From an uncultured Gammaproteobacteria bacterium (lineage in GTDB: Bacteria; Patescibacteriota; Patescibacteriia; 2-01-FULL-39-33): DNA of 25,019 nt. This document shows, in pieces, positions 470 through 16,008 of this stretch (position 1 is its first letter; each line of letters starts with the position of its first letter). The position numbers and the translations under genes are program-made. Where the stretch lies: assembly GCA_964363385.1 (NCBI GenBank), contig CAYIIA010000001.1, positions 1-25,019 on the forward strand, given 5' to 3'. The notes beneath the pieces were generated by a model. The model saw nothing but the letters and a program-made list of their open reading frames with translations, was not told where the DNA came from and ran no database searches.

Positions 470-690
470 TTAAAAAATCAGATATTGTCCGGGAGGGCGC
501 CAATTTTTCCATCCAGCGCTTTTTAAAGCGTCCGCAGTAAAAGGCTTTCTGACTTTCGGACTAGCCTGATTCTTATCAAACTGAATTATTTTATTGAAGC
601 CGCATCTTACAGAGCGGTTCTCTGCGGCTTAACCCCCCGAAGTCTCCGAGGGAACACCGCAGCGCTCCATAAACTGTTATTGCATGCTTC
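470..690 (-). ncRNA. Candidate structured non-coding transcript of unknown class (multibranch fold)
   Basis: Promoter at 697-725. A 15-bp closing helix (669-655 with 539-524) encloses three hairpins. No start-codon-led ORF. The 3' end is uncertain. Confidence 0.4.
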
Positions 691-696
691 ACTTAC

Positions 697-3906: not shown

Positions 3907-5073
3907 TTAGAATTTCCAATCGGCTCCGAAGCCAATCGTTACTGTCTTAGCCTTGAACTCGTTGCCCCGGCTGTCTTGCATGTCACCCCAGCCGTAGATG
4001 ACGTGAGTGTTGAGAGTCCAGTCGTCGTTCACTTTCTGGTGGAAACCGAGAGCCACATCCCAACCCGTGACGTCCGGCGTGAGTTGGCTTACAGTGCCCT
4101 CCGGTACGGCCGCATTCTGGTAGCCTATGCCTCCGCTTAGCCAGAGGTTTTCCTGAATCTCCTTGCGGAAACCGACATGGACACTGTAGTTGTCCCGCCA
4201 GTCCAGCAATTTGCCCTTGGTAAGCGGCAGATCATGGAAACTTAGTTTGACATCGTCCACGGTCTGGCTGTAGCCGTACCAATGAAGGGAGGCTGCCAGA
4301 AGCAATTTTTTGTTCGCTTGGCAAGACACGCTTAGACTAGTCATGTCCGGGAATGTGAACGAACTATAGAAGCCGTCCTTGAGAGACAACAGACCAAGAG
4401 GACCCGAGATCTTTGTGTTGCCTTCCAGATGCGCTTTTAATTCGCTCATGTATGACAGGCCGAGGGTCAACTTCTCTGTCTGCCACATCACTCCAACGTT
4501 TGCTCCCAGTCCTAAGCCCGTCGCTTCGCTGTCCGTGAGGATTGGGAGATATACGTTCTTAATGTCGAAGGGAGCCAGATACTTGAATTGGCACCACCCG
4601 ACATTCAATCCCGCGCCCACAGACAGATGGTCTGTCAGTCGCAGCGAGATCGCCGGCGTGATGTTCGTCAGCGAGATCAGGGTTTCGCTTTTGAAGAATC
4701 CTTTGGACCAGTCCGCATCAAAGGCAGCGCCCATTCCGTAAGGTGTCATAATCCCGATGCCCCAAACCGCATCTTTGTTTATGGACTTAGTCAGTCCAAG
4801 AAGAGGCATGGGGTAGACCATGTCATCCCGGGATCCATGCGTACCCAACCGATTTTTAATCTTGAATTTCGGTTGGATCGCCTGGACACCGAAATCCAGA
4901 GAATCTTCCAAATTAATGATCCCGGCCGGGTTATCCCTAAATAGAATCATATCGTCCGCATAGGCTCCGCTCATACCGCCATGACGGCTGCCAATACCGC
5001 CCACCGGATTGAGACCGCCAGCCCAGGCCGGCAGAGTCATAACGAGTAGAATTGTAAAGAACAGTTTTCTCAT
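3907..5073 (-). CDS. FadL/OmpP1/TodX-family outer-membrane beta-barrel transporter (388 aa)
   Basis: Signal peptide MRKLFFTILLVMTLPAWA; family N-terminal pattern GSRHGGMSGA...DNPAGI; YGMGAAF; amphipathic strands; C-terminal ...GFGADWKF beta-signal; GGAGG SD. Confidence 0.85.
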   Translation of the reverse strand: MRKLFFTILLVMTLPAWAGGLNPVGGIGSRHGGMSGAYADDMILFRDNPAGIINLEDSLDFGVQAIQPKFKIKNRLGTHGSRDDMVYPMPLLGLTKSINKDAVWGIGIMTPYGMGAAFDADWSKGFFKSETLISLTNITPAISLRLTDHLSVGAGLNVGWCQFKYLAPFDIKNVYLPILTDSEATGLGLGANVGVMWQTEKLTLGLSYMSELKAHLEGNTKISGPLGLLSLKDGFYSSFTFPDMTSLSVSCQANKKLLLAASLHWYGYSQTVDDVKLSFHDLPLTKGKLLDWRDNYSVHVGFRKEIQENLWLSGGIGYQNAAVPEGTVSQLTPDVTGWDVALGFHQKVNDDWTLNTHVIYGWGDMQDSRGNEFKAKTVTIGFGADWKF

Positions 5074-5141: not shown

Positions 5142-5201
5142 TTCTACCATATTTATCTAAATTAGTCAAGACTTGACAATTGTATTATATTAAGGTAATA
5201 T
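5142..5201. promoter_or_regulatory. Divergent sigma70 promoters: minus TTGACT-17-TAGAAT (porin) and plus TTGACA(5173-5178)-17-TAATAT(5196-5201) (RNA unit C)
   Basis: Both hexamer pairs have 17-nt spacers. Confidence 0.6.
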
Positions 5202-5206
5202 ACAGG

Positions 5207-5364
5207 TATTCATTTTATGTTTCCTTCATAAGTGGAGTAGCCCCCGGGGAAGAGGGCAAGTAGTCGTGAGGCACGCATTAGATGTACGACATCTCAATCC
5301 GTCGACCAAAGCGACATCCCCAAACAGCACCACCGACCGGGAACGCCCAGTCGGTCTTTTATTT
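5207..5364 (+). ncRNA. Candidate small RNA unit C (multi-hairpin, own promoter and terminator)
   Basis: Hairpins CTTCA/TGGAG, GCCC/GGGC, CGTG/CACG, AGATGT/ACATCT and GTCG/CGAC. Terminator ACCGAC.GGG/CCC.GTCGGT (5332-5355) plus U-rich tract. Shares TAGTCGTG-N3-CACG and AACAGC with units A and B. Confidence 0.5.
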
Positions 5365-5401: not shown

Positions 5402-6025
5402 ATGAAGCAATTTTTAACTGTTGGATTAGCAAAAAAAGATAAGAAATTTGAGAGTTTTTTGGAGGCAACAAAAAAAGAGTTGACCGCTTTTTTTAACTCA
5501 AGCGTTCCTGAACCTTTGATTTTTCTATTAGAGTCTCGGTTGGAATTGGATCTGATCTGGGGACAAAAAACCGAGAAGTGGGTTGTCGGAGGCACAAAGA
5601 ATGGATCTATCTTTATTTTAGATCCTAAGGTTTATACTCAGCAATCAAGCCATAAAGACAAGAATGATTTTTGGAAAACATTGAAACACGAGTATTGCCA
5701 TATATATTTCAGATACATCACTAAAGGTGTCAATCCTCTTTGGCTGCATGAAGGATTGGCCTCATATTTGGCTGATCAGAAGAAAATCTGTGATGATCCT
5801 TTGGATGTTTTTTCTTATTTTGATAAGCCAGGAAAAGGACTGTATAATGCCGGTTATTTCTGGGTTGATTTGTTGATTGAAAAATTCGGGAAAGCGAAGT
5901 TTTTAAGATTGATAAAATCCCTTGAACCGAAGCCTAATTTAACCGAAAATATCTTCTCCGCAAGATTTTGTAAGATATATGGCTTTAAATTCGATAAGAA
6001 TGCTCTTACTAAACTCATAAAGTAA
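5402..6025 (+). CDS. Peptidase MA-like HExxH metalloprotein (207 aa)
   Basis: LKHEYCHIY followed by WLHEGLASYLA (gluzincin-like). Start placed at ATG 5402, after the RNA C terminator. Confidence 0.75.
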   Translation: MKQFLTVGLAKKDKKFESFLEATKKELTAFFNSSVPEPLIFLLESRLELDLIWGQKTEKWVVGGTKNGSIFILDPKVYTQQSSHKDKNDFWKTLKHEYCHIYFRYITKGVNPLWLHEGLASYLADQKKICDDPLDVFSYFDKPGKGLYNAGYFWVDLLIEKFGKAKFLRLIKSLEPKPNLTENIFSARFCKIYGFKFDKNALTKLIK

Positions 6026-6028
6026 TAG

Positions 6029-6070
6029 AAAAAACGGGTCAAAATATTTGTGTATATTGCCCGTTTTTTG
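6029..6070. terminator. Intrinsic terminator after the peptidase gene
   Basis: AAAAAACGGG...CCCGTTTTTT inverted repeat. Confidence 0.7.
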
Positions 6071-6075
6071 TTGTT

Positions 6076-6281
6076 TTGACAGAGGTTTCCACATCCTCTA
6101 TAATGAAGTTAGTAAGGAGCAGTCGTGCTTCTTACAGTCCGCAAGGTACACCTCGTAGGAGGTAGTCGTGATACACGGCGAACAGCTAATTTGACTTTAC
6201 GCACCGGTAGTTCCACTATCCTAGTCAGATAAGTTTGTCGCCGTGCCTTTTTTTGTTTAAATTTACCGGTGTGTGTTGACA
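6076..6281 (+). repeat. Module copy A: promoter P1 - structured RNA - terminator - promoter P2 (dispersed repeat of 9985-10181)
   Basis: TTGACA(6076)-17-TATAAT(6099). The first ~120 nt are nearly identical to copy B. Second TTGACA at 6276. Confidence 0.9.
6111..6254 (+). ncRNA. Candidate small RNA unit A (~145 nt)
   Basis: Stems GTAAGGAGCA/TGCTTCTTAC, CC-GCAA-GG, ACCTC/GAGGT, CGTG/CACG, ATTTGACT/AGTCAGAT and CACGGCGA/TCGCCGTG, then U7. Covaries with copy B. Confidence 0.7.
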
Positions 6282-6445
6282 AAGTTTGGTATTAGTGGTA
6301 ATTTAAAATCACAGTCCTTTACAATAGATTAAAAGCCCTATTTATATTGTCGTTTGACAGGGTTAATAGTATTAAATGAAGATCTATGGTGGATTTTCAA
6401 CCCAAAGAATGGCAGGAGAATATAGGCAAGAAAGGAGGAAAAGCC

Positions 6446-6595
6446 ATGAAGCGTGACTGGAGCAAGTTTCAGCCCAAGGCGATCGTCGCTTCGTCAAAGA
6501 AGCCGAGTTATGCCAATATGGGACGCCCTTGTTGCGGCGGTTCGTGCATCGGCGGCAACTGCAAAGCCGTTCCGAAAATCGGCGGTATGTTCTGA
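6446..6595 (+). CDS. Putative RiPP precursor peptide (49 aa) with Cys/Gly-rich core CCGGSCIGGNC
   Basis: AAGGAGG SD 7 nt before the ATG; lies directly upstream of an RRE-rSAM/SPASM gene. An in-frame upstream ATG at 6386 would give 69 aa. Confidence 0.75.
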   Translation: MKRDWSKFQPKAIVASSKKPSYANMGRPCCGGSCIGGNCKAVPKIGGMF

Positions 6596-6609
6596 TCGGC
6601 GAACTTCGT

Positions 6610-6650
6610 TGGGTTCCACGGCGCAAGCGCTTTGGAACCCATATTTTTTT
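6610..6650 (+). terminator. Terminator-like hairpin between precursor and maturase
   Basis: TGGGTTCCA/TGGAACCCA 9-bp stem with an inner GCG/CGC stem, then a U7 tract. Confidence 0.7.
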
Positions 6651-6668
6651 AGAAAGGAGGCGAAAAGA

Positions 6669-7952
6669 ATGAAACAAGCGTTTCTCCCAGAAAAAGTTGT
6701 TTTCTATATTGAACCAAATGAACGGCTGGGGACCATTCATAATCTAAAAAACGATGGAAGGGCGTATGTCAATGCCGACACGATAGAGATTATTCGGCAT
6801 TTGGTCCAGGGGAATGATCTGGGTTCCTTTTTTCCATCGGAAATGCCAAGGGAAGAAAGAGAAGGGCTTATTCGGCAAAGTGAGTCCGTGTTGCGTCAGT
6901 TAGAGGATTCAGGGTTTTTGACCGAAGAGAATTCTGGCCGGCAAGGGCTGATCAAAGAAGTAAAAGCCGATCCGTCGCTTAGAGTGGTTTTCATCGAACT
7001 GACGAAAGAATGCAACTTGCGATGCAAGCATTGCTACGTTCCTGACGGTAGCGGTTCCGCAAAGCGCATGAATCGCAGCCAGATGACCTTTGCCGAGGTC
7101 TGCGGTTTAATCTCGCAGATTGATGAGCTGGGAGTGATGGAACTCCAACTTACTGGCGGAGAGCCATTTATTCTGCCATACATTCTTGGTGTTATAAAGG
7201 AAGCGCAGAACAGACTAATCCCTTGCTCTATTTTTACTAATGGAACATTAATGACTGAGGATATATTTAGATATATATCCGAAAACAATCATGGCTTGAT
7301 TTTCTACATAAGCCTGGATGGCCATCAAAAAACCCATAATGCTTTCCGTAGAAGTCAGGGAGCGTTCCAAAAGACCGTCGGGGCGATCGAAAGGTTGCTT
7401 CAAATGGATTGCGATGTCAGGATTAATACTTCTATCGGCAGGCATAACATCTCCGAGATGCGCCAATTCATCGAATTCGTGAAAAACAAATTTGGTGTTT
7501 TGCACAGGTTGGTTACTGTGGAGCCTATTGGTCGGGCAAATGCTGAAATAACCATTTCCGCCGAAGAATTCGCGGATCTGCTTCGGGAGAGTCAAAATAC
7601 GTTTGAATTCCTCGATAGCCACGACTCAATTGCCGATTGGTCGACTCCTGCCTGCGGAATCGGTTCATCAATGTTATTTATCGACGCATACGGCGATGTG
7701 TCGTTCTGCCCGACTTTAACGCAAAGAGAAAATCCTGAGTTCTTGGCAGGGAGCGTCGCCCATTCTTCGCTAAAGGATATCTGGGAAAATTCATCTGTCT
7801 TTAGACAATTCAGATGGTTGCAATGCAGAGAAGTGGAACAATGCGGTTTTCGCGAATTATGCAAAGGGGGTTGCAGAAGCCGGGCGTATCTGTCCACTGG
7901 AGACGCCAATTCGCCTGATCACGCAATGTGTTTGTTGTATAAGAAGAGTTAA
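6669..7952 (+). CDS. Radical SAM/SPASM peptide maturase with N-terminal PqqD/RRE-like domain (427 aa)
   Basis: AAGGAGG SD before ATG 6669; RRE-like GTIHNLKNDGRAYVN...VLRQLEDSGFL; CNLRCKHC (CxxxCxxC); LTGGEP; SPASM-type CGIG...GDVSFCP...CREVEQCGFRELCKGGC...AMC. Confidence 0.9.
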   Translation: MKQAFLPEKVVFYIEPNERLGTIHNLKNDGRAYVNADTIEIIRHLVQGNDLGSFFPSEMPREEREGLIRQSESVLRQLEDSGFLTEENSGRQGLIKEVKADPSLRVVFIELTKECNLRCKHCYVPDGSGSAKRMNRSQMTFAEVCGLISQIDELGVMELQLTGGEPFILPYILGVIKEAQNRLIPCSIFTNGTLMTEDIFRYISENNHGLIFYISLDGHQKTHNAFRRSQGAFQKTVGAIERLLQMDCDVRINTSIGRHNISEMRQFIEFVKNKFGVLHRLVTVEPIGRANAEITISAEEFADLLRESQNTFEFLDSHDSIADWSTPACGIGSSMLFIDAYGDVSFCPTLTQRENPEFLAGSVAHSSLKDIWENSSVFRQFRWLQCREVEQCGFRELCKGGCRSRAYLSTGDANSPDHAMCLLYKKS

Positions 7953-7957
7953 GTTTG

Positions 7958-7990
7958 AGCCTAGCCATCCGCGGTTGGGCTTTATTTTTT
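7958..7990 (+). terminator. Intrinsic terminator after the rSAM gene
   Basis: AGCCTAGCC/GGTTGGGCT stem followed by TTTATTTTTT. Confidence 0.7.
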
Positions 7991-8015
7991 GGCCTTAAAA
8001 TGGTATCATTCTTTT

Positions 8016-8786
8016 ATGAGCCTGCCGAAAGTAAAATTCATCGATATCCCGTTATCCAGAGAAATCGATTGGATGCATGGTTTTTTATTCCAAAACGAAT
8101 GGGGATGGGGGAGGTATATAATCAAGAAACATCCGAAGATTAAGAAAGTGCTTTCTTTCAAAACCGAGGCGGAGCAGGTCAAATTTTTAAAAGAGTATAT
8201 TATTAGGTTCAGGAAAGAAAATCGAAAACTGATAGAAAATAACAAAGCAGAATATCAAAGAAGGTGGAAAAGAGTAGAGAGGGATTTTTTTATCTTGCTT
8301 TCAGAAATTATGCGGATTAATTGGCCTAAAAACAGAAAAACGATCACAGCCATGGTTTCCATTAATCCAATCTGCCCCCGTTTTTTGAAAGACTGGAGTT
8401 TTTCTATTTTTTACGATTACAAGAAAATACCCCACGCATTGGAAGTTATTATGCACGAATCCTGTCATTTCTTGTATTTTGAAAAGTGGAAAAAGATGTA
8501 TCCTAAAATGAGCTTAAAAAGATTAGAATCTCCATATTTAGAATGGCATTTAAGCGAGATCATAGTGCCGATCATTTTGAATGACGGTCGTGTTCAGAAG
8601 TTATTGAAGCAAAAGGCGGTTTTTTACGCCGAGCATAAGAGGATAAAAATAGGTGTTAAAACCGCTCCAAGATATTTTACTGATTTATACAACAAGGTTG
8701 CTAAAATCGATGGTTTTGAAAAATTTTTAAAAAGATCGTGCCAGGCGATTAAAAGGAATGAAAAGCTGTTTAAGGCTCAACTTTGA
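8016..8786 (+). CDS. Hypothetical HExxH-motif (putative Zn-metalloprotease-like) protein (256 aa)
   Basis: VIMHESCHFLYF, then WHLSEIIV. Start placed at ATG 8016, after the terminator. Confidence 0.7.
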   Translation: MSLPKVKFIDIPLSREIDWMHGFLFQNEWGWGRYIIKKHPKIKKVLSFKTEAEQVKFLKEYIIRFRKENRKLIENNKAEYQRRWKRVERDFFILLSEIMRINWPKNRKTITAMVSINPICPRFLKDWSFSIFYDYKKIPHALEVIMHESCHFLYFEKWKKMYPKMSLKRLESPYLEWHLSEIIVPIILNDGRVQKLLKQKAVFYAEHKRIKIGVKTAPRYFTDLYNKVAKIDGFEKFLKRSCQAIKRNEKLFKAQL

Positions 8787-9048
8787 ATGTTAAAGCAATC
8801 ACTATAATACGGAATACAACAAAATTTATCAAAACAATAAAGATGCCTGGGGAAAGAACCCGAACAAATACCTGCAGATGGTCTGGCAGAGACTGGATCC
8901 CGGCTCGGAATTTTTAGATTTGGGCTGTGGCCAGGGAAGAGACTCGATGTTTATGGCCAAGCAGGGATTCAAGGTTGCGGCCGTTGACGAAAATAATCAA
9001 AGTGATATGATAAAGGCAAGAAGAAGTTCATTTCAACTTAGTATCTAA
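8787..9048 (+). pseudogene. Frameshifted, truncated class I methyltransferase (TehB-like N-terminus)
   Basis: The frame from 8794 reads ...AWGKNPNKYL...FLDLGCGQGRDSMFMAKQGFKVAAVD and then degenerates to TAA 9046. ATG 8787 is out of frame by one base. Confidence 0.75.
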
Positions 9049-9072
9049 AGGAGAGGAAAGGAGGTGGTAGTA

Positions 9073-9432
9073 ATGGCACATGCCACATATCCGTCAGTTT
9101 TTTGGGATAATAGTTCAAATGCCTACAAGTGTGAAATGCGGGATAAGAAAACCGGTCAAGCTTGGGGGCATGGTTACGGGATTACGCGTAACGAAGCTAT
9201 TCGTAATGCGCGTCATAACCAGCCGAAAGATCCCGTGGTTAAGAGAGCAATCGGCTGGGTGTCGCACCATCCGTTCATAGCCGGAGCCGCAGTCGGATGT
9301 TACTTGCAATACCGTCACGCCAGATATCACCAGGACGAACTGAGACCGGCTGATTATCTGGTAGCGGCGATTATGATGGGGACTATTGTTTGGGCCGCTG
9401 TCAAAGTCTTTGATTGGCTGATGGAACCCTGA
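9073..9432 (+). CDS. Hypothetical membrane protein (119 aa): small N-terminal alpha/beta domain plus two hydrophobic segments
   Basis: AAGGAGGTGG SD; hydrophobic segments FIAGAAVGCYL and YLVAAIMMGTIVWAAVKVF. Confidence 0.7.
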   Translation: MAHATYPSVFWDNSSNAYKCEMRDKKTGQAWGHGYGITRNEAIRNARHNQPKDPVVKRAIGWVSHHPFIAGAAVGCYLQYRHARYHQDELRPADYLVAAIMMGTIVWAAVKVFDWLMEP

Positions 9433-9588
9433 CCCGGCAACAGAAAGGAAAGAAGGTCGGAGTTTCAGAGCCAACATGGCTTTGGATTAGTACATATAGC
9501 CATTTAGCGGAATGGCCATCTACGCGTCACCGAAGAACATGAAAAAGAACGAGAGCAAGTCATTCCAAAAGAAGGGAGGTGTTGCCGT

Positions 9589-9672
9589 ATGAAGCAGATA
9601 GTTATCACTGAATCTCAAAGCATTGTGTCTGTCGCGCAAATCGTAATGTCAACGTCCTGCGGTATCGGATAA
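9589..9672 (+). CDS. Small peptide MKQIVITESQSIVSVAQIVMSTSCGIG (27 aa)
   Basis: GGGAGGTG SD 7 nt before the ATG. Below the ORF-track length cutoff. Confidence 0.5.
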   Translation: MKQIVITESQSIVSVAQIVMSTSCGIG

Positions 9673-9683
9673 CCAAGGAAGAG

Positions 9684-9872
9684 ATGGTTTGTCGCCCATT
9701 GTGGCTTGTCCCGTCCGACTTGTCGCTAGATAGCGACATTTTATTACCGCGGGGATTTCGCCACCGTAGTGGTACGATGACATTATGGCGTGTCGAGGAA
9801 CAGAGGGAAAGAGGTAGTCCAGAGGTCGCCCATAGAGGTAGAGTCCAGAGATACCATTTCAGATTCCGGTAA
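9684..9872 (+). CDS. Hypothetical protein (62 aa)
   Basis: Purine-rich AAGGAAGAG before the ATG; follows the 27-aa peptide by 11 nt; no recognised motif. Confidence 0.35.
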   Translation: MVCRPLWLVPSDLSLDSDILLPRGFRHRSGTMTLWRVEEQRERGSPEVAHRGRVQRYHFRFR

Positions 9873-9984
9873 GGGCTAACATCCGATGGCCACACGCACA
9901 TTTACCGAAGGTTCGTGTTGAATGCGCGATCCCACAGGAATGTCGCGCCGAAGAGCGATTTTCCTGACACGATTTTCCTGGCTC

Positions 9985-10181
9985 TTGACAGAGGTTTCCA
10001 CATCCTCTACAATGAAGTTAGTAAGGAGCAGTCGTGCTTCTTACAGTCCGCAAGGTACCTCGTATGAGGTAGTCGTGATACACGGCGAACAGCTAATTTG
10101 ACCTAACAGAACGAGTAGTCGCTATCTTGGTCAGATATGCTAGTCGCCGTTTTTTTGTCTAAATTTACATGCCACTTGACA
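9985..10181 (+). repeat. Module copy B: promoter P1 - structured RNA - terminator - promoter P2
   Basis: TTGACA(9985)-17-TACAAT(10008). Second promoter TTGACA(10176)-17-TATTAT(10199). Confidence 0.9.
10020..10156 (+). ncRNA. Candidate small RNA unit B (paralogue of unit A)
   Basis: Same stems as A, with ATTTGACC/GGTCAGAT replacing ATTTGACT/AGTCAGAT (compensatory change); ACGGCGA/TCGCCGT plus U-tract. Confidence 0.7.
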
Positions 10182-10263
10182 CAAAATAGGTTTTGTGATA
10201 TTATTATCTGAAGCATTAATGAAGGTTTTGGAGCACGTTTACAACCAAGAAAGGAGGCAGATT

Positions 10264-11226
10264 ATGCCGCACAGCCATCAGAAAAAGCTCTTGCGGCGTC
10301 TGTCGCCGTTTGAGCTGGAAAAGGAAGTCGACAGAAGGAAATCCCGGATTCATTTGTTCCAAGTCAGGGATGAAATCATCCAGGATGCGCCTGAAATCTT
10401 CGAATGTGAAGAGTTCAAAAGAGTCAAAAAGCATCCTAGCGTGAGTTGGTTCATCCGCAGTTTCTGGCAATGGAACGAGTATGCCCTGCCGATCATGAGT
10501 TCGTCTTCACATCCGAATTTCGGGATGCAGGACAAACTTTGTGAATTGGCCCACCCTTTCCTGAGAGGGACAGTCGTGGATCTAGGTTGCGGTGCTGGCG
10601 ATTTCTATAACCGTTTGTTCAAGGTCAATGGCCGGAAGATCGAAAAAATCTTCGCGGTGGATATTGACTGGGAGGCGTTAGTCCTGATGCCTCACAAGCT
10701 CAGAGAAGTCGGTTACCGAGGCAAGGTCGGCCTGATCCAAGGATCTACCATGTCTCGTCTGCCGGTTTGGAATGAAACCGCGGATTGCGTGCTTTCGAGC
10801 ATCGGAGGCGTCACCTATGCCGGCTGGTGGTTTGAGAACGACCGCCTTGTCTGCGAGGGTAGGGAGGCATTGTCCAAGTGTTTGAAAGAAGCCAACCGCG
10901 TTTTGAAGCTTGGCGGACATCTGGCATTCTCGAGCCTGAAGCCGAACCCGAATTTTGAGATGGTGCTGGCTGATTCGTTGATCTGGCCGGTAACGCATCT
11001 GAAGTTTGATGTGTTTTGGAGAGTTGCGAGGTACGGGTTCCACATCAAAAAAATCTCTCAGTTTCTCCATGAGGCTGAGAAAAGGCAGAATGCCCATTAC
11101 CTTTCTCTGGAAGAATGGGATTCCTGCCTGAAAGAAGCCGGGTTCGAGGTCGTTGTTTCGACTCTGGGCGAGTGTTACGCTAAGCAAGGCGTGGTAGTCG
11201 TTGCCAGGAAAACGCGCAATGTCTAG
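10264..11226 (+). CDS. Class I SAM-dependent methyltransferase with N-terminal extension (320 aa)
   Basis: AAGGAGG SD before ATG 10264; VVDLGCGAG; FAVDID; EANRVLKLGG. Confidence 0.85.
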   Translation: MPHSHQKKLLRRLSPFELEKEVDRRKSRIHLFQVRDEIIQDAPEIFECEEFKRVKKHPSVSWFIRSFWQWNEYALPIMSSSSHPNFGMQDKLCELAHPFLRGTVVDLGCGAGDFYNRLFKVNGRKIEKIFAVDIDWEALVLMPHKLREVGYRGKVGLIQGSTMSRLPVWNETADCVLSSIGGVTYAGWWFENDRLVCEGREALSKCLKEANRVLKLGGHLAFSSLKPNPNFEMVLADSLIWPVTHLKFDVFWRVARYGFHIKKISQFLHEAEKRQNAHYLSLEEWDSCLKEAGFEVVVSTLGECYAKQGVVVVARKTRNV

Positions 11227-15836: not shown

Positions 15837-16008
15837 AAAAAACCTCTCATCTCAAAACACATCTTTCGGATATATTTTGGGACGAGAGGATTTCCCGCGG
15901 TTCCACCCACATTCTTTGCCTGACGGGCAAAGCGCTTTTTGTCTGAACTTAGCCTGGTTTGAAGGGCCTCATTTAGAGGCAGGCGGTTGGTAGCCGTCTC
16001 AATCGTTT
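15837..16008 (-). promoter_or_regulatory. T-box riboswitch leader of thrS (transcriptional terminator type)
   Basis: The minus strand has AATGTGGGTGGAACCGCG...CTCGTCCC (T-box antiterminator), preceded by the stem III-like CTTTGCC/GGCAAAG and followed by a long terminator (15889-15843, GAAA loop) plus U6. Confidence 0.88.

Follow-up and report, generated by a model that had tools for sequence, protein, structure and literature searches.

The window analysed here is the whole 25,019-nt stretch at positions 1 to 25,019 (forward strand) of contig CAYIIA010000001.1, assembly GCA_964363385.1, deposited as an uncultured Gammaproteobacteria bacterium (GTDB lineage Bacteria; Patescibacteriota; Patescibacteriia; 2-01-FULL-39-33). 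It contains two homologous copies, A and B, of a non-coding unit termed T, each composed of a promoter, a structured RNA of ~140 nt and a predicted intrinsic terminator. Copy A lies upstream of genes resembling those for a ribosomally synthesised and post-translationally modified peptide (RiPP), whereas copy B follows the gene of a 119-aa protein and a second conserved non-coding element, S, and precedes a methyltransferase gene (Table 1). Comparison with relatives indicates that T is a real and previously undescribed small RNA family, which is missing from Rfam, structurally conserved and narrowly distributed.

Table 1. Features of the two T copies and their surroundings (fold z, z score of the folding energy against shuffled sequences; R2 and R3, covariance models described in the text)
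Feature	Position	Strand	Basis
Promoter of T copy A, TTGACA-17-TATAAT, AGAGG-N9-CCTCT in spacer	6076..6104	+	12/12 consensus, promoter scan
T RNA copy A, ~145 nt, loop subtype 1	6111..6256	+	fold z -4.4; R2 65.7 bits, E 4e-11
Copy A hairpin P1	6112-6121/6126-6135	+	predicted fold
Copy A hairpin P2	6150-6154/6159-6163	+	predicted fold
Copy A local trap hairpin	6165-6170/6174-6179	+	predicted fold
Copy A closing stem	6174-6181/6238-6245	+	predicted fold
Copy A helix 2a	6184-6187/6232-6235	+	predicted fold
Copy A inner stem	6189-6196/6223-6230	+	predicted fold
Copy A apical loop	6197-6222	+	predicted fold
Divergent apical block of A (subtype 1: CGGUAGUUCCACUAUCCU)	6198..6244	+	14/48 columns differ from B
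Copy A U-tract	6248-6254	+	predicted fold
Downstream of A: Cys-rich 49-aa peptide (..PCCGGSCIGGNC..) and radical SAM/SPASM enzyme	6446..7952	+	translation; Pfam
Conserved neighbour gene, 119-aa protein	9073..9432	+	homologues upstream of T or S in other loci
Invariant GGAGGUG, 7-nt spacer, putative small ORF (27 codons here) and conserved TAA inside S	9575..9672	+	sequence comparison
S core: 13-bp P1 enclosing 9-bp P2 and inner hairpins, one length-variable	9627..9793	+	alifold; model R3
Promoter of T copy B, TTGACA-17-TACAAT	9985..10013	+	11/12 consensus, promoter scan
T RNA copy B, ~137 nt, loop subtype 2: GUCGCUAUCUU	10020..10158	+	fold z -4.8; R2 60 bits, E 6e-10
Copy B closing stem	10082-10088/10144-10150	+	predicted fold
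Copy B inner stem	10096-10103/10129-10136	+	predicted fold
Copy B apical loop	10104-10128	+	predicted fold
Copy B U-tract	10150-10156	+	predicted fold
Separate promoter of the downstream methyltransferase gene, TTGACA-17-TATTAT with TG	10176..10204	+	11/12, promoter scan
Downstream of B: SAM-dependent methyltransferase	10265..11226	+	Pfam Methyltransf_31/25/11

Architecture of the two T copies

A BLAST search of 6076-6256 against the whole assembly (0.69 Mb in 85 contigs, 88% complete) returned exactly two copies, 6076-6256 (A) and 9985-10158 (B), sharing 88% identity. Pairwise alignment of the first 122 nt (6076-6197) revealed five differing columns, in agreement with an earlier sequence-only reading of this DNA, which had described homologous copies with a near-identical first ~120 nt including the promoter and the AGAGG-N9-CCTCT inverted repeat in its spacer. 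This repeat is present in both A and B but missing from the T promoters of other genomes, and is thus not a feature of the family. The same reading held that the 3' domain keeps its pairing, with a compensatory stem and ACGGCGA/TCGCCGT ahead of the U-tract, and the alignment bears this out. The segments ATTTGACT/AGTCAGAT of A become ATTTGACC/GGTCAGAT in B, a compensatory change of U-A to C-G; the GUAG/CUAU pairing is preserved in both copies, and ACGGCGA/TCGCCGT closes the domain ahead of T7.

Downstream of the terminator, A and B are identical at 20 of 21 nt (T7-GT[T/C]TAAATTTAC), followed by 7-9 nt that cannot be aligned and then by TTGACA in both copies. The homology had been proposed to run on to this second -35 hexamer, which both copies indeed possess, but the short gap in front of it interrupts the alignment. 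A second promoter had also been assigned to each copy; that of B is good, whereas the TTGACA of A at 6277 is paired with a poor -10 element (TAATTT) and was not called by the promoter scan. The start of RNA A is placed solely from the position of its -10 element. A GTG-led frame behind AAGGAG in hairpin P1 spans 35 codons in A and 12 in B, and is not a conserved open reading frame (ORF), because a 2-nt indel gives it different lengths in the two copies; no ORF common to the T units was found, the units of three relatives (G009, G023 and L040, see below) included.

Homologues in related genomes

Family T comprises ten units in seven genomes or contigs of one Patescibacteria order: A, B, two tandem units of G009 (u1 and u2), G023, L040, L061, L062 and a tandem pair in L065 (T1 and T2). 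A covariance model built from A and B (R1) gave weak matches to the 3' domain in G009 (both tandem units) and G023, which belong to the same family as the window genome. A pattern derived from the conserved block, run against species-representative genomes and metagenome twins, identified G009, G023 and a Candidatus Buchananbacteria metagenome-assembled genome (L040), and tracking of the conserved neighbour gene yielded the units in L061 and L062 and the tandem pair in L065. A second covariance model (R2) was built from foreign units only, with the window left out, and matched both A and B with significant scores (Table 1); because it owes nothing to the window, it independently confirms their homology to the foreign units. 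The named relatives carrying T are Patescibacteria from groundwater, and the sequencing runs with the T locus are groundwater DNA runs only.

Searching the whole window against Rfam 15 at the gathering thresholds reported only a DUF3800-V RNA at 595-691 (minus strand) and no match to T. At E<=10, the region 6000-6400 gave noise only (mir-986 with 15 bits, and DLEU2_4), and the loci of G009 and G023 showed no relevant match. The proposal of an undescribed small RNA family of ~145 nt is thus upheld, with an RNA of ~140 nt that belongs to no known Rfam family and whose homologues covary; a literature search also found no report of this or a similar regulatory or structured RNA family in Patescibacteria. 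The distribution is narrow. No T unit turned up in the remaining 31 genomes of this order, in viral contigs (pattern search), or, beyond its own genome, in 400 genomes of the phylum (pattern) and 150 of the class (R1 and R2), where the filters scored part of the candidates, so that the outcome reads "not found" rather than "absent".

Several candidates were discarded. BLAST of the unit in 60 relatives gave just chance matches of 15-28 nt within genes, and the other pattern matches in metagenome contigs were likewise due to chance, lying in an apparent succinyl-CoA synthetase gene (MKIHEYQAKAILAKYDVPVP). A 31-bit match in G007 was not counted, as it consists of a TTGACC-17-TATAAT promoter without closing stem or terminator. 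This promoter, at 1540-1600 of L055 (G007:C57), has on its flanks the inverted repeat known from the T inner stem (ATTTGAC ... GUCAGAU/GTCAGAT) together with UCUAGUCAGAUAA; the element could be a relic of T or a common DNA-level motif. Within the window, a resemblance of AGAGGUUUCCACAUCCUCUAUAA to the preQ1-I aptamer was considered and dropped, given that no Rfam match supports it and the stretch is the promoter itself. A further candidate member, "unit C" (5173-5364), has its own TTGACA promoter, hairpins and a terminator, and shares GUAGUCGUG-N3-CACG with A and B; it was rejected, as neither R1 nor R2 matches it and the other T loci have no homologue of it. In the relative G133 (L063, 1870-2140), a longer and divergent T-like RNA of ~240 nt with its own promoter occupies the position of T downstream of S. 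Its first part resembles T (AUUGACC ... UGGUCAG ... GUUGUCCCGU), and it has a different terminator and no CACGG strand.

Predicted structure and folding of T RNA

The folding energies of A and B are -51.8 and -52.4 kcal/mol, respectively. Each T unit consists of two predicted domains. The 5' domain has one or two hairpins, often with a purine-rich, Shine-Dalgarno-like run paired with a CU-rich strand, and its sequence is not conserved between genomes. The 3' domain is an irregular helix composed of a GC-rich closing stem, a 3-bp helix and an inner stem topped by the apical loop, and the closing stem is followed by T5-T8 in all T units. We predict that closing stem and U-tract together act as an intrinsic terminator, which a simple terminator scan missed because the enclosed domain exceeds its loop limit.

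The model alignment of eight units has paired bases in 87.9% of the cells that make up closing stem, 3-bp helix and 8-bp inner stem, compared to 22-42% when the 3' partners are slid by 1-3 columns. Double-sided changes occur at seven pairs, and the covariation score of 0.315 (0.168 in shuffles) is reached by 0 of 500 shuffled alignments. Examples are an A-U/G-C exchange in the middle of the inner stem (five versus three units) and a U-A/C-G exchange at its top. In addition, the otherwise invariant closing stem CACGG/CCGUG reads CACAG/CUGUG in L065-T1, where A-U replaces a G-C pair. Covariation is thus seen in homologues from other genera, so that A and B are more than a young duplicate pair undergoing drift.

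In every unit, the CACGG strand is predicted to fold into a short local hairpin (hereafter the trap hairpin; -5.5 to -9.7 kcal/mol) as long as the opposite strand of the closing stem has not been transcribed. By a stricter criterion it is found in eight of the ten units and in 11% of shuffled sequences, giving a nominal binomial P of 6e-7 for units that are non-independent. The partner of CACGG lies upstream in A and B (GUCGUG-AUA-CACGGC) and downstream in most other units, so that the hairpin occurs in two topologies, and a G-C to A-U double change between G009 u1 and u2 preserves it. In all units, the full-length fold favours the terminator by 6-14 kcal/mol over the fold that precedes the 3' strand (pre-X'' fold).

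Two loop subtypes on homogenised flanks

Re-alignment of A and B places five differing columns among the 122 upstream, 14 among the 48 of the apical block and one among the 21 just downstream; in a MAFFT alignment, the numbers are 5/122 and 16/47, respectively (Fisher p 1e-6). The unpaired segment had been said to change completely. This is too strong for the segment itself, as TTACGCACC and TAACAGAAC match at five of nine positions, but the whole apical part (6198-6244) is divergent indeed.

The 3' part of A is closer to foreign units than to B, with identities of 87% to L065-T2, 84% to L040, 83% to L061 and 77% to L062, compared to only 73% to B. The 5' half behaves in the opposite way: the 5'/3' identities are 97/73% between A and B, against 50/87% between A and L065-T2, 50/84% between A and L040 and 53/83% between A and L061. 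The ten units fall into two loop subtypes. Subtype 1 (CGGUAGUUCCACUAUyCU) is found in A, L040, L061, L062 and L065-T2, whereas subtype 2 (GUCGCUAUyCU) is found in B, both G009 units, G023 and L065-T1. The tandem pair of L065 has one member of each subtype, and its two 5' halves are 73% alike, which is above the likeness between genomes.

Because the 3' part of A is nearer to foreign units than to B, the copies appear to carry two old loop subtypes on recently homogenised flanks. The simplest reading of these sequences is that two old paralogues have had their flanks evened out by gene conversion, while selection kept the apical blocks apart; the mosaic is a clear example of an RNA gene in which concerted evolution has affected one part only. 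Homogenisation of the flanks within genomes together with conservation of the apical block between genomes therefore points to the apical loop as a functional determinant.

The neighbouring protein gene and the S element

The sequence-only reading had recommended a search for a linked protein gene, and one was found: the gene of a predicted membrane protein of ~120 residues (119 aa in the window) usually lies upstream of T. In G009 (64% identity), L040, L061, L062 and L065, a homologue is encoded immediately before T and in the same orientation, and G133 also has one, upstream of S. The protein family is very rare, with 15 clusters among 1.84 billion representatives, and has no Pfam or PADLOC match apart from a sub-threshold holin match (E 0.09).

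In the AlphaFold2 model of the 119-aa protein (pLDDT 88), a β-β-β-α domain forms the N-terminus; of the three α-helices behind it, the second and third are long and form a helical hairpin. These C-terminal helices may serve as a membrane anchor. Structural similarity search of residues 1-51 using Foldseek against the PDB gave top matches that are almost all double-stranded-RNA-binding domains (dsRBDs), including those of RNase III, DGCR8, Staufen, Loquacious, PKR and mL44, with E values of 0.06-0.5 and VIA Z of 5-6.5. Comparison with dsrm clusters gave Atlas TM of 0.41/0.58, and HicB-like clusters appear as well. Compared to the α-β-β-β-α fold of a dsRBD, the model lacks the first helix, and there is no Pfam dsrm match. 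This domain may be dsRBD-like, which would make the protein a candidate partner for the long S and T helices.

Between the 119-aa gene and the T promoter lies S, a second conserved non-coding element (~9575-9975 in the window). It opens with an invariant Shine-Dalgarno motif ahead of a small ORF; the motif, its spacing and the stop codon are the same in four of five loci, and the ORF has 18-27 codons with C-termini of the form ..SxCG[IV]G, suggesting that it may be translated. The S-ORF of the window (9589-9672) ends in ..STSCGIG, and the Cys-rich peptide beside the radical SAM/SPASM gene (6446-6595) has ..GSCIGG..; the resemblance may be coincidence. In the S core, alifold predicts 36 pairs, eight of them with double changes. 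The 3' part of S is less conserved and ends in a hairpin with a CCGAAGAG loop at ~9935-9966.

A covariance model of S (R3) scores 154 bits in the window, 164 in G133, 173 in L065, 73 in L066, 50 in L067, where the contig end cuts the element, and 31 in L069, a weak match. In each of these relatives, S follows a homologue of the 119-aa protein, as it does in at least nine loci in total; conversely, S is always found behind the gene of this protein. S has no Rfam match, and of the two new RNAs it may prove the more substantial one.

The protein gene and S precede T in the window (copy B), G009, L040, L061, L062 and L065, whereas copy A and the unit of G023 stand without them. B is thus the copy in the ancestral position, as it follows protein and S in the manner of most loci. 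Copy A adjoins the RiPP-like genes that precede the protein-S-T block; the enzyme among them matches Pfam Radical_SAM (1e-17) and SPASM (3e-9). Another gene that recurs near T encodes an outer-membrane barrel of the FadL/Toluene_X type (window 3907-5073, minus strand; L033 11-1153; L040 1403-2650), which is convergent with T in G009 and L040. Patescibacteria are generally considered to have no outer membrane, so a gene of this type is odd there.

Two other elements of the window were covered by the Rfam scan. The DUF3800-V RNA (RF02964) is matched over its full length with 62.8 bits (cut-off 37.4), which gives a name to what had earlier been described as a multibranch RNA of unrecognised class at 470-725. 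A compact T-box had been proposed upstream of thrS (15837-16008); the whole-window scan at gathering thresholds reported none.

Transcription context and possible function of T

A TTGACA-16/17 promoter, scored by consensus match only, precedes nine of the ten T units, both tandem members of L065 included. What follows differs between loci: the Cys-rich peptide and radical SAM/SPASM genes after A, the methyltransferase gene behind its own promoter after B, a double zinc-ribbon ORF without clear promoter after the G009 units, dehydratase/epimerase genes behind their own promoters after the units of both G023 and L065, and convergent genes after those of L040 and L062. The next gene runs in the same direction as T in seven of the ten units. 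Unrelated downstream genes that have their own promoters or are convergent favour a stand-alone RNA over a leader, and regulated read-through past T may still be compatible with such a varied context.

The comparisons establish the T family with its structure and its two subtypes, as well as the mosaic pattern and the linkage to S and to the gene of the small membrane protein. As to function, we propose, with a probability of about one half, that A and B are paralogous stand-alone small RNA genes with the apical loop as their functional site. Each T would form its own transcription unit, in which a sigma-70 promoter and an intrinsic terminator enclose ~140 nt devoid of a conserved ORF. As the RNA is synthesised, CACGG, the 5' strand of the closing stem, would first be held in the trap hairpin; once the 3' strand (CCGUG) is made, it would pass into the long irregular helix of closing stem, 3-bp helix and 7-8-bp inner stem, which would stop transcription at the U-tract and display an apical loop of 25-30 nt whose 3' half is conserved. 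The two subtypes, GGUAGUUCCACUAUyCU and GUCGCUAUyCU, would be old, with this genome retaining one of each, and gene conversion would have evened out promoter, 5' half and 3' flank between A and B. T would then be a free RNA that acts by means of the apical loop, and the dsRBD-like membrane protein whose gene lies upstream might bind it.

Several points weigh against this proposal. The discrete transcript of ~140 nt is a prediction from sequence, and the covariation comes from a small set of relatives (8-10 sequences) whose alignment was fitted to the structure of the model itself. A conserved trap hairpin would be expected in a conditional terminator sooner than in a plain small RNA, and read-through is possibly relevant, as the next ORF in G009 is without a recognisable promoter and the promoter downstream of A is poor. 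Examination of complementarity in the own genome and in the cognate region identified neither a target nor a partner, and the structural matches behind the dsRBD-like assignment are weak (Foldseek E >= 0.06, Z 6.5).

Some of these points are just what is expected if T is instead a conditional terminator, that is, a riboswitch-like or protein-controlled attenuator, in which a ligand or protein at the apical loop decides between the trap hairpin (read-through) and the closing stem (termination), so that the strong T promoter would drive the RiPP genes after A and the methyltransferase gene after B. We regard this as a genuine though minority possibility. The strongest argument for such a switch is the trap hairpin, with its enrichment over shuffled sequences, its two topologies and its preservation by the double change in G009. 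Also in line with it are the tandem units of G009 and L065, reminiscent of tandem riboswitches, the missing or poor promoters downstream of G009 and A, and the predominant codirection with the next gene. However, the downstream genes are unrelated across loci and convergent in two of them; behind B, G023 and L065-T2 stand strong promoters separate from that of T, and what follows L065-T1 is the promoter of T2 itself. Moreover, the trap hairpin is much weaker than the terminator that the full-length fold prefers, and Rfam offers no match to a known aptamer. By comparison, it is very improbable that T is a recent segmental duplication of a promoter-terminator unit, drifting without function at the RNA level. 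The presence of just two copies with 88% identity speaks for such an account, but it is already largely refuted by the homologues in other genera with conserved structure and compensatory changes, by the closeness of the 3' part of A to foreign units, and by a divergence confined to an internal block, which uniform drift would not yield.

The sequence-only reading had favoured a guide- or seed-like variable segment in a repeat that may also capture cassettes, as a recombination anchor and portable promoter. In its favour, variability is highest in the apical block, with a conserved scaffold on either side, A and B bracket an accessory segment of 3.7 kb, and the copies have exchanged sequence, a part of the proposal that survives in weaker form. 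Nevertheless, a target-programming loop now seems hardly credible. The loop segments of orthologues differ by point changes within two cross-genome subtypes, and UUACGCACCGG of A, UUACAGUACGG of L040, UUACAGCAUCGG of L065-T2 and UAACAGAACGA/UUUUAUAACGG of B are recognisable as point-mutated relatives. Exact complements of the A and B loops in the own genome reach at most 10-11 nt, which lies within or below the 10-14 nt obtained with 30 shuffled loops, and the duplex energies of loop or 5' half with the cognate protein-S region do not surpass those of non-cognate pairs. Pfam and PADLOC, run on the ORFs of the window, revealed no nuclease, transposase, integrase or reverse transcriptase, and viral contigs gave no match. 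As to an anchor or portable promoter, there are just two copies per genome, some downstream genes are convergent, and the segment between A and B holds the ancestral protein-S-T block instead of captured cargo. The DNA contigs of four groundwater runs, with a low depth of ~5x, break at the repeats and show no deletion joints, which is weak evidence and uninformative on recombination.

Beyond the stand-alone RNA itself, T, S with its small ORF and a membrane-anchored dsRBD-like protein might form one new RNA-protein module of this Patescibacteria lineage, an extension that we put forward as unlikely but attractive. The protein would hold the long helices of S, T or both at the membrane, and the two loop subtypes would represent two specificities, which would explain why both are maintained while the remainder of the gene is homogenised. 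Patescibacteria are ultrasmall and mostly uncultured organisms with reduced genomes and few experimental handles. In this 0.7-Mb genome, two strong promoters are spent on an ORF-less covarying RNA, and T, S and the small membrane protein provide a concrete and testable RNA-protein candidate in this group.

Comparison with known RNA systems

Paralogous Rho-independent small RNAs occur in pairs or tandems, as exemplified by OmrA/OmrB, PrrF1/PrrF2 and the Qrr family. Like T, they have their own promoter, a length of ~100-150 nt, no ORF and an intrinsic terminator, which in T is a predicted one. They are also present in at least two copies, in some cases arranged in tandem, that are nearly identical except for one diverging part. 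However, T is unrelated to them in sequence or by Rfam; its identical part is genome-specific and its divergent part is shared across genomes, and its predicted terminator is the base of an irregular helix of ~80 nt rather than a short hairpin.

Terminating riboswitches and attenuators have a conserved structured domain whose closing helix, ahead of a U-tract, competes with a local hairpin; a competition of this kind is predicted for T, which is also arranged in tandem in two genomes. By contrast, T is not followed by a consistent downstream gene, with separate promoters or convergent genes after most units; its closing helix is itself the predicted terminator, and no Rfam aptamer matches it. 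A conserved scaffold around a more variable internal segment is also seen in tracrRNA/crRNA, the omega RNA of TnpB/IscB and the IS110 bridge RNA. Compared to these guide RNAs, T has no adjacent gene for Cas, TnpB/IscB or an IS110 recombinase (Pfam and PADLOC, window ORFs), its segment is not hypervariable and showed no targets in the own genome, and neither a repeat array nor transposon ends accompany it. T also differs from the attC sites of integrons, having just two copies, no integrase and no GTTRRRY core in the stem. A parallel in kind is the DUF3800-V RNA, likewise a promoter-driven, ORF-less and covarying RNA of unassigned function that was defined by comparison and gene linkage. T and S match no such model, and the gene to which T is linked is that of the predicted membrane protein of ~120 residues.

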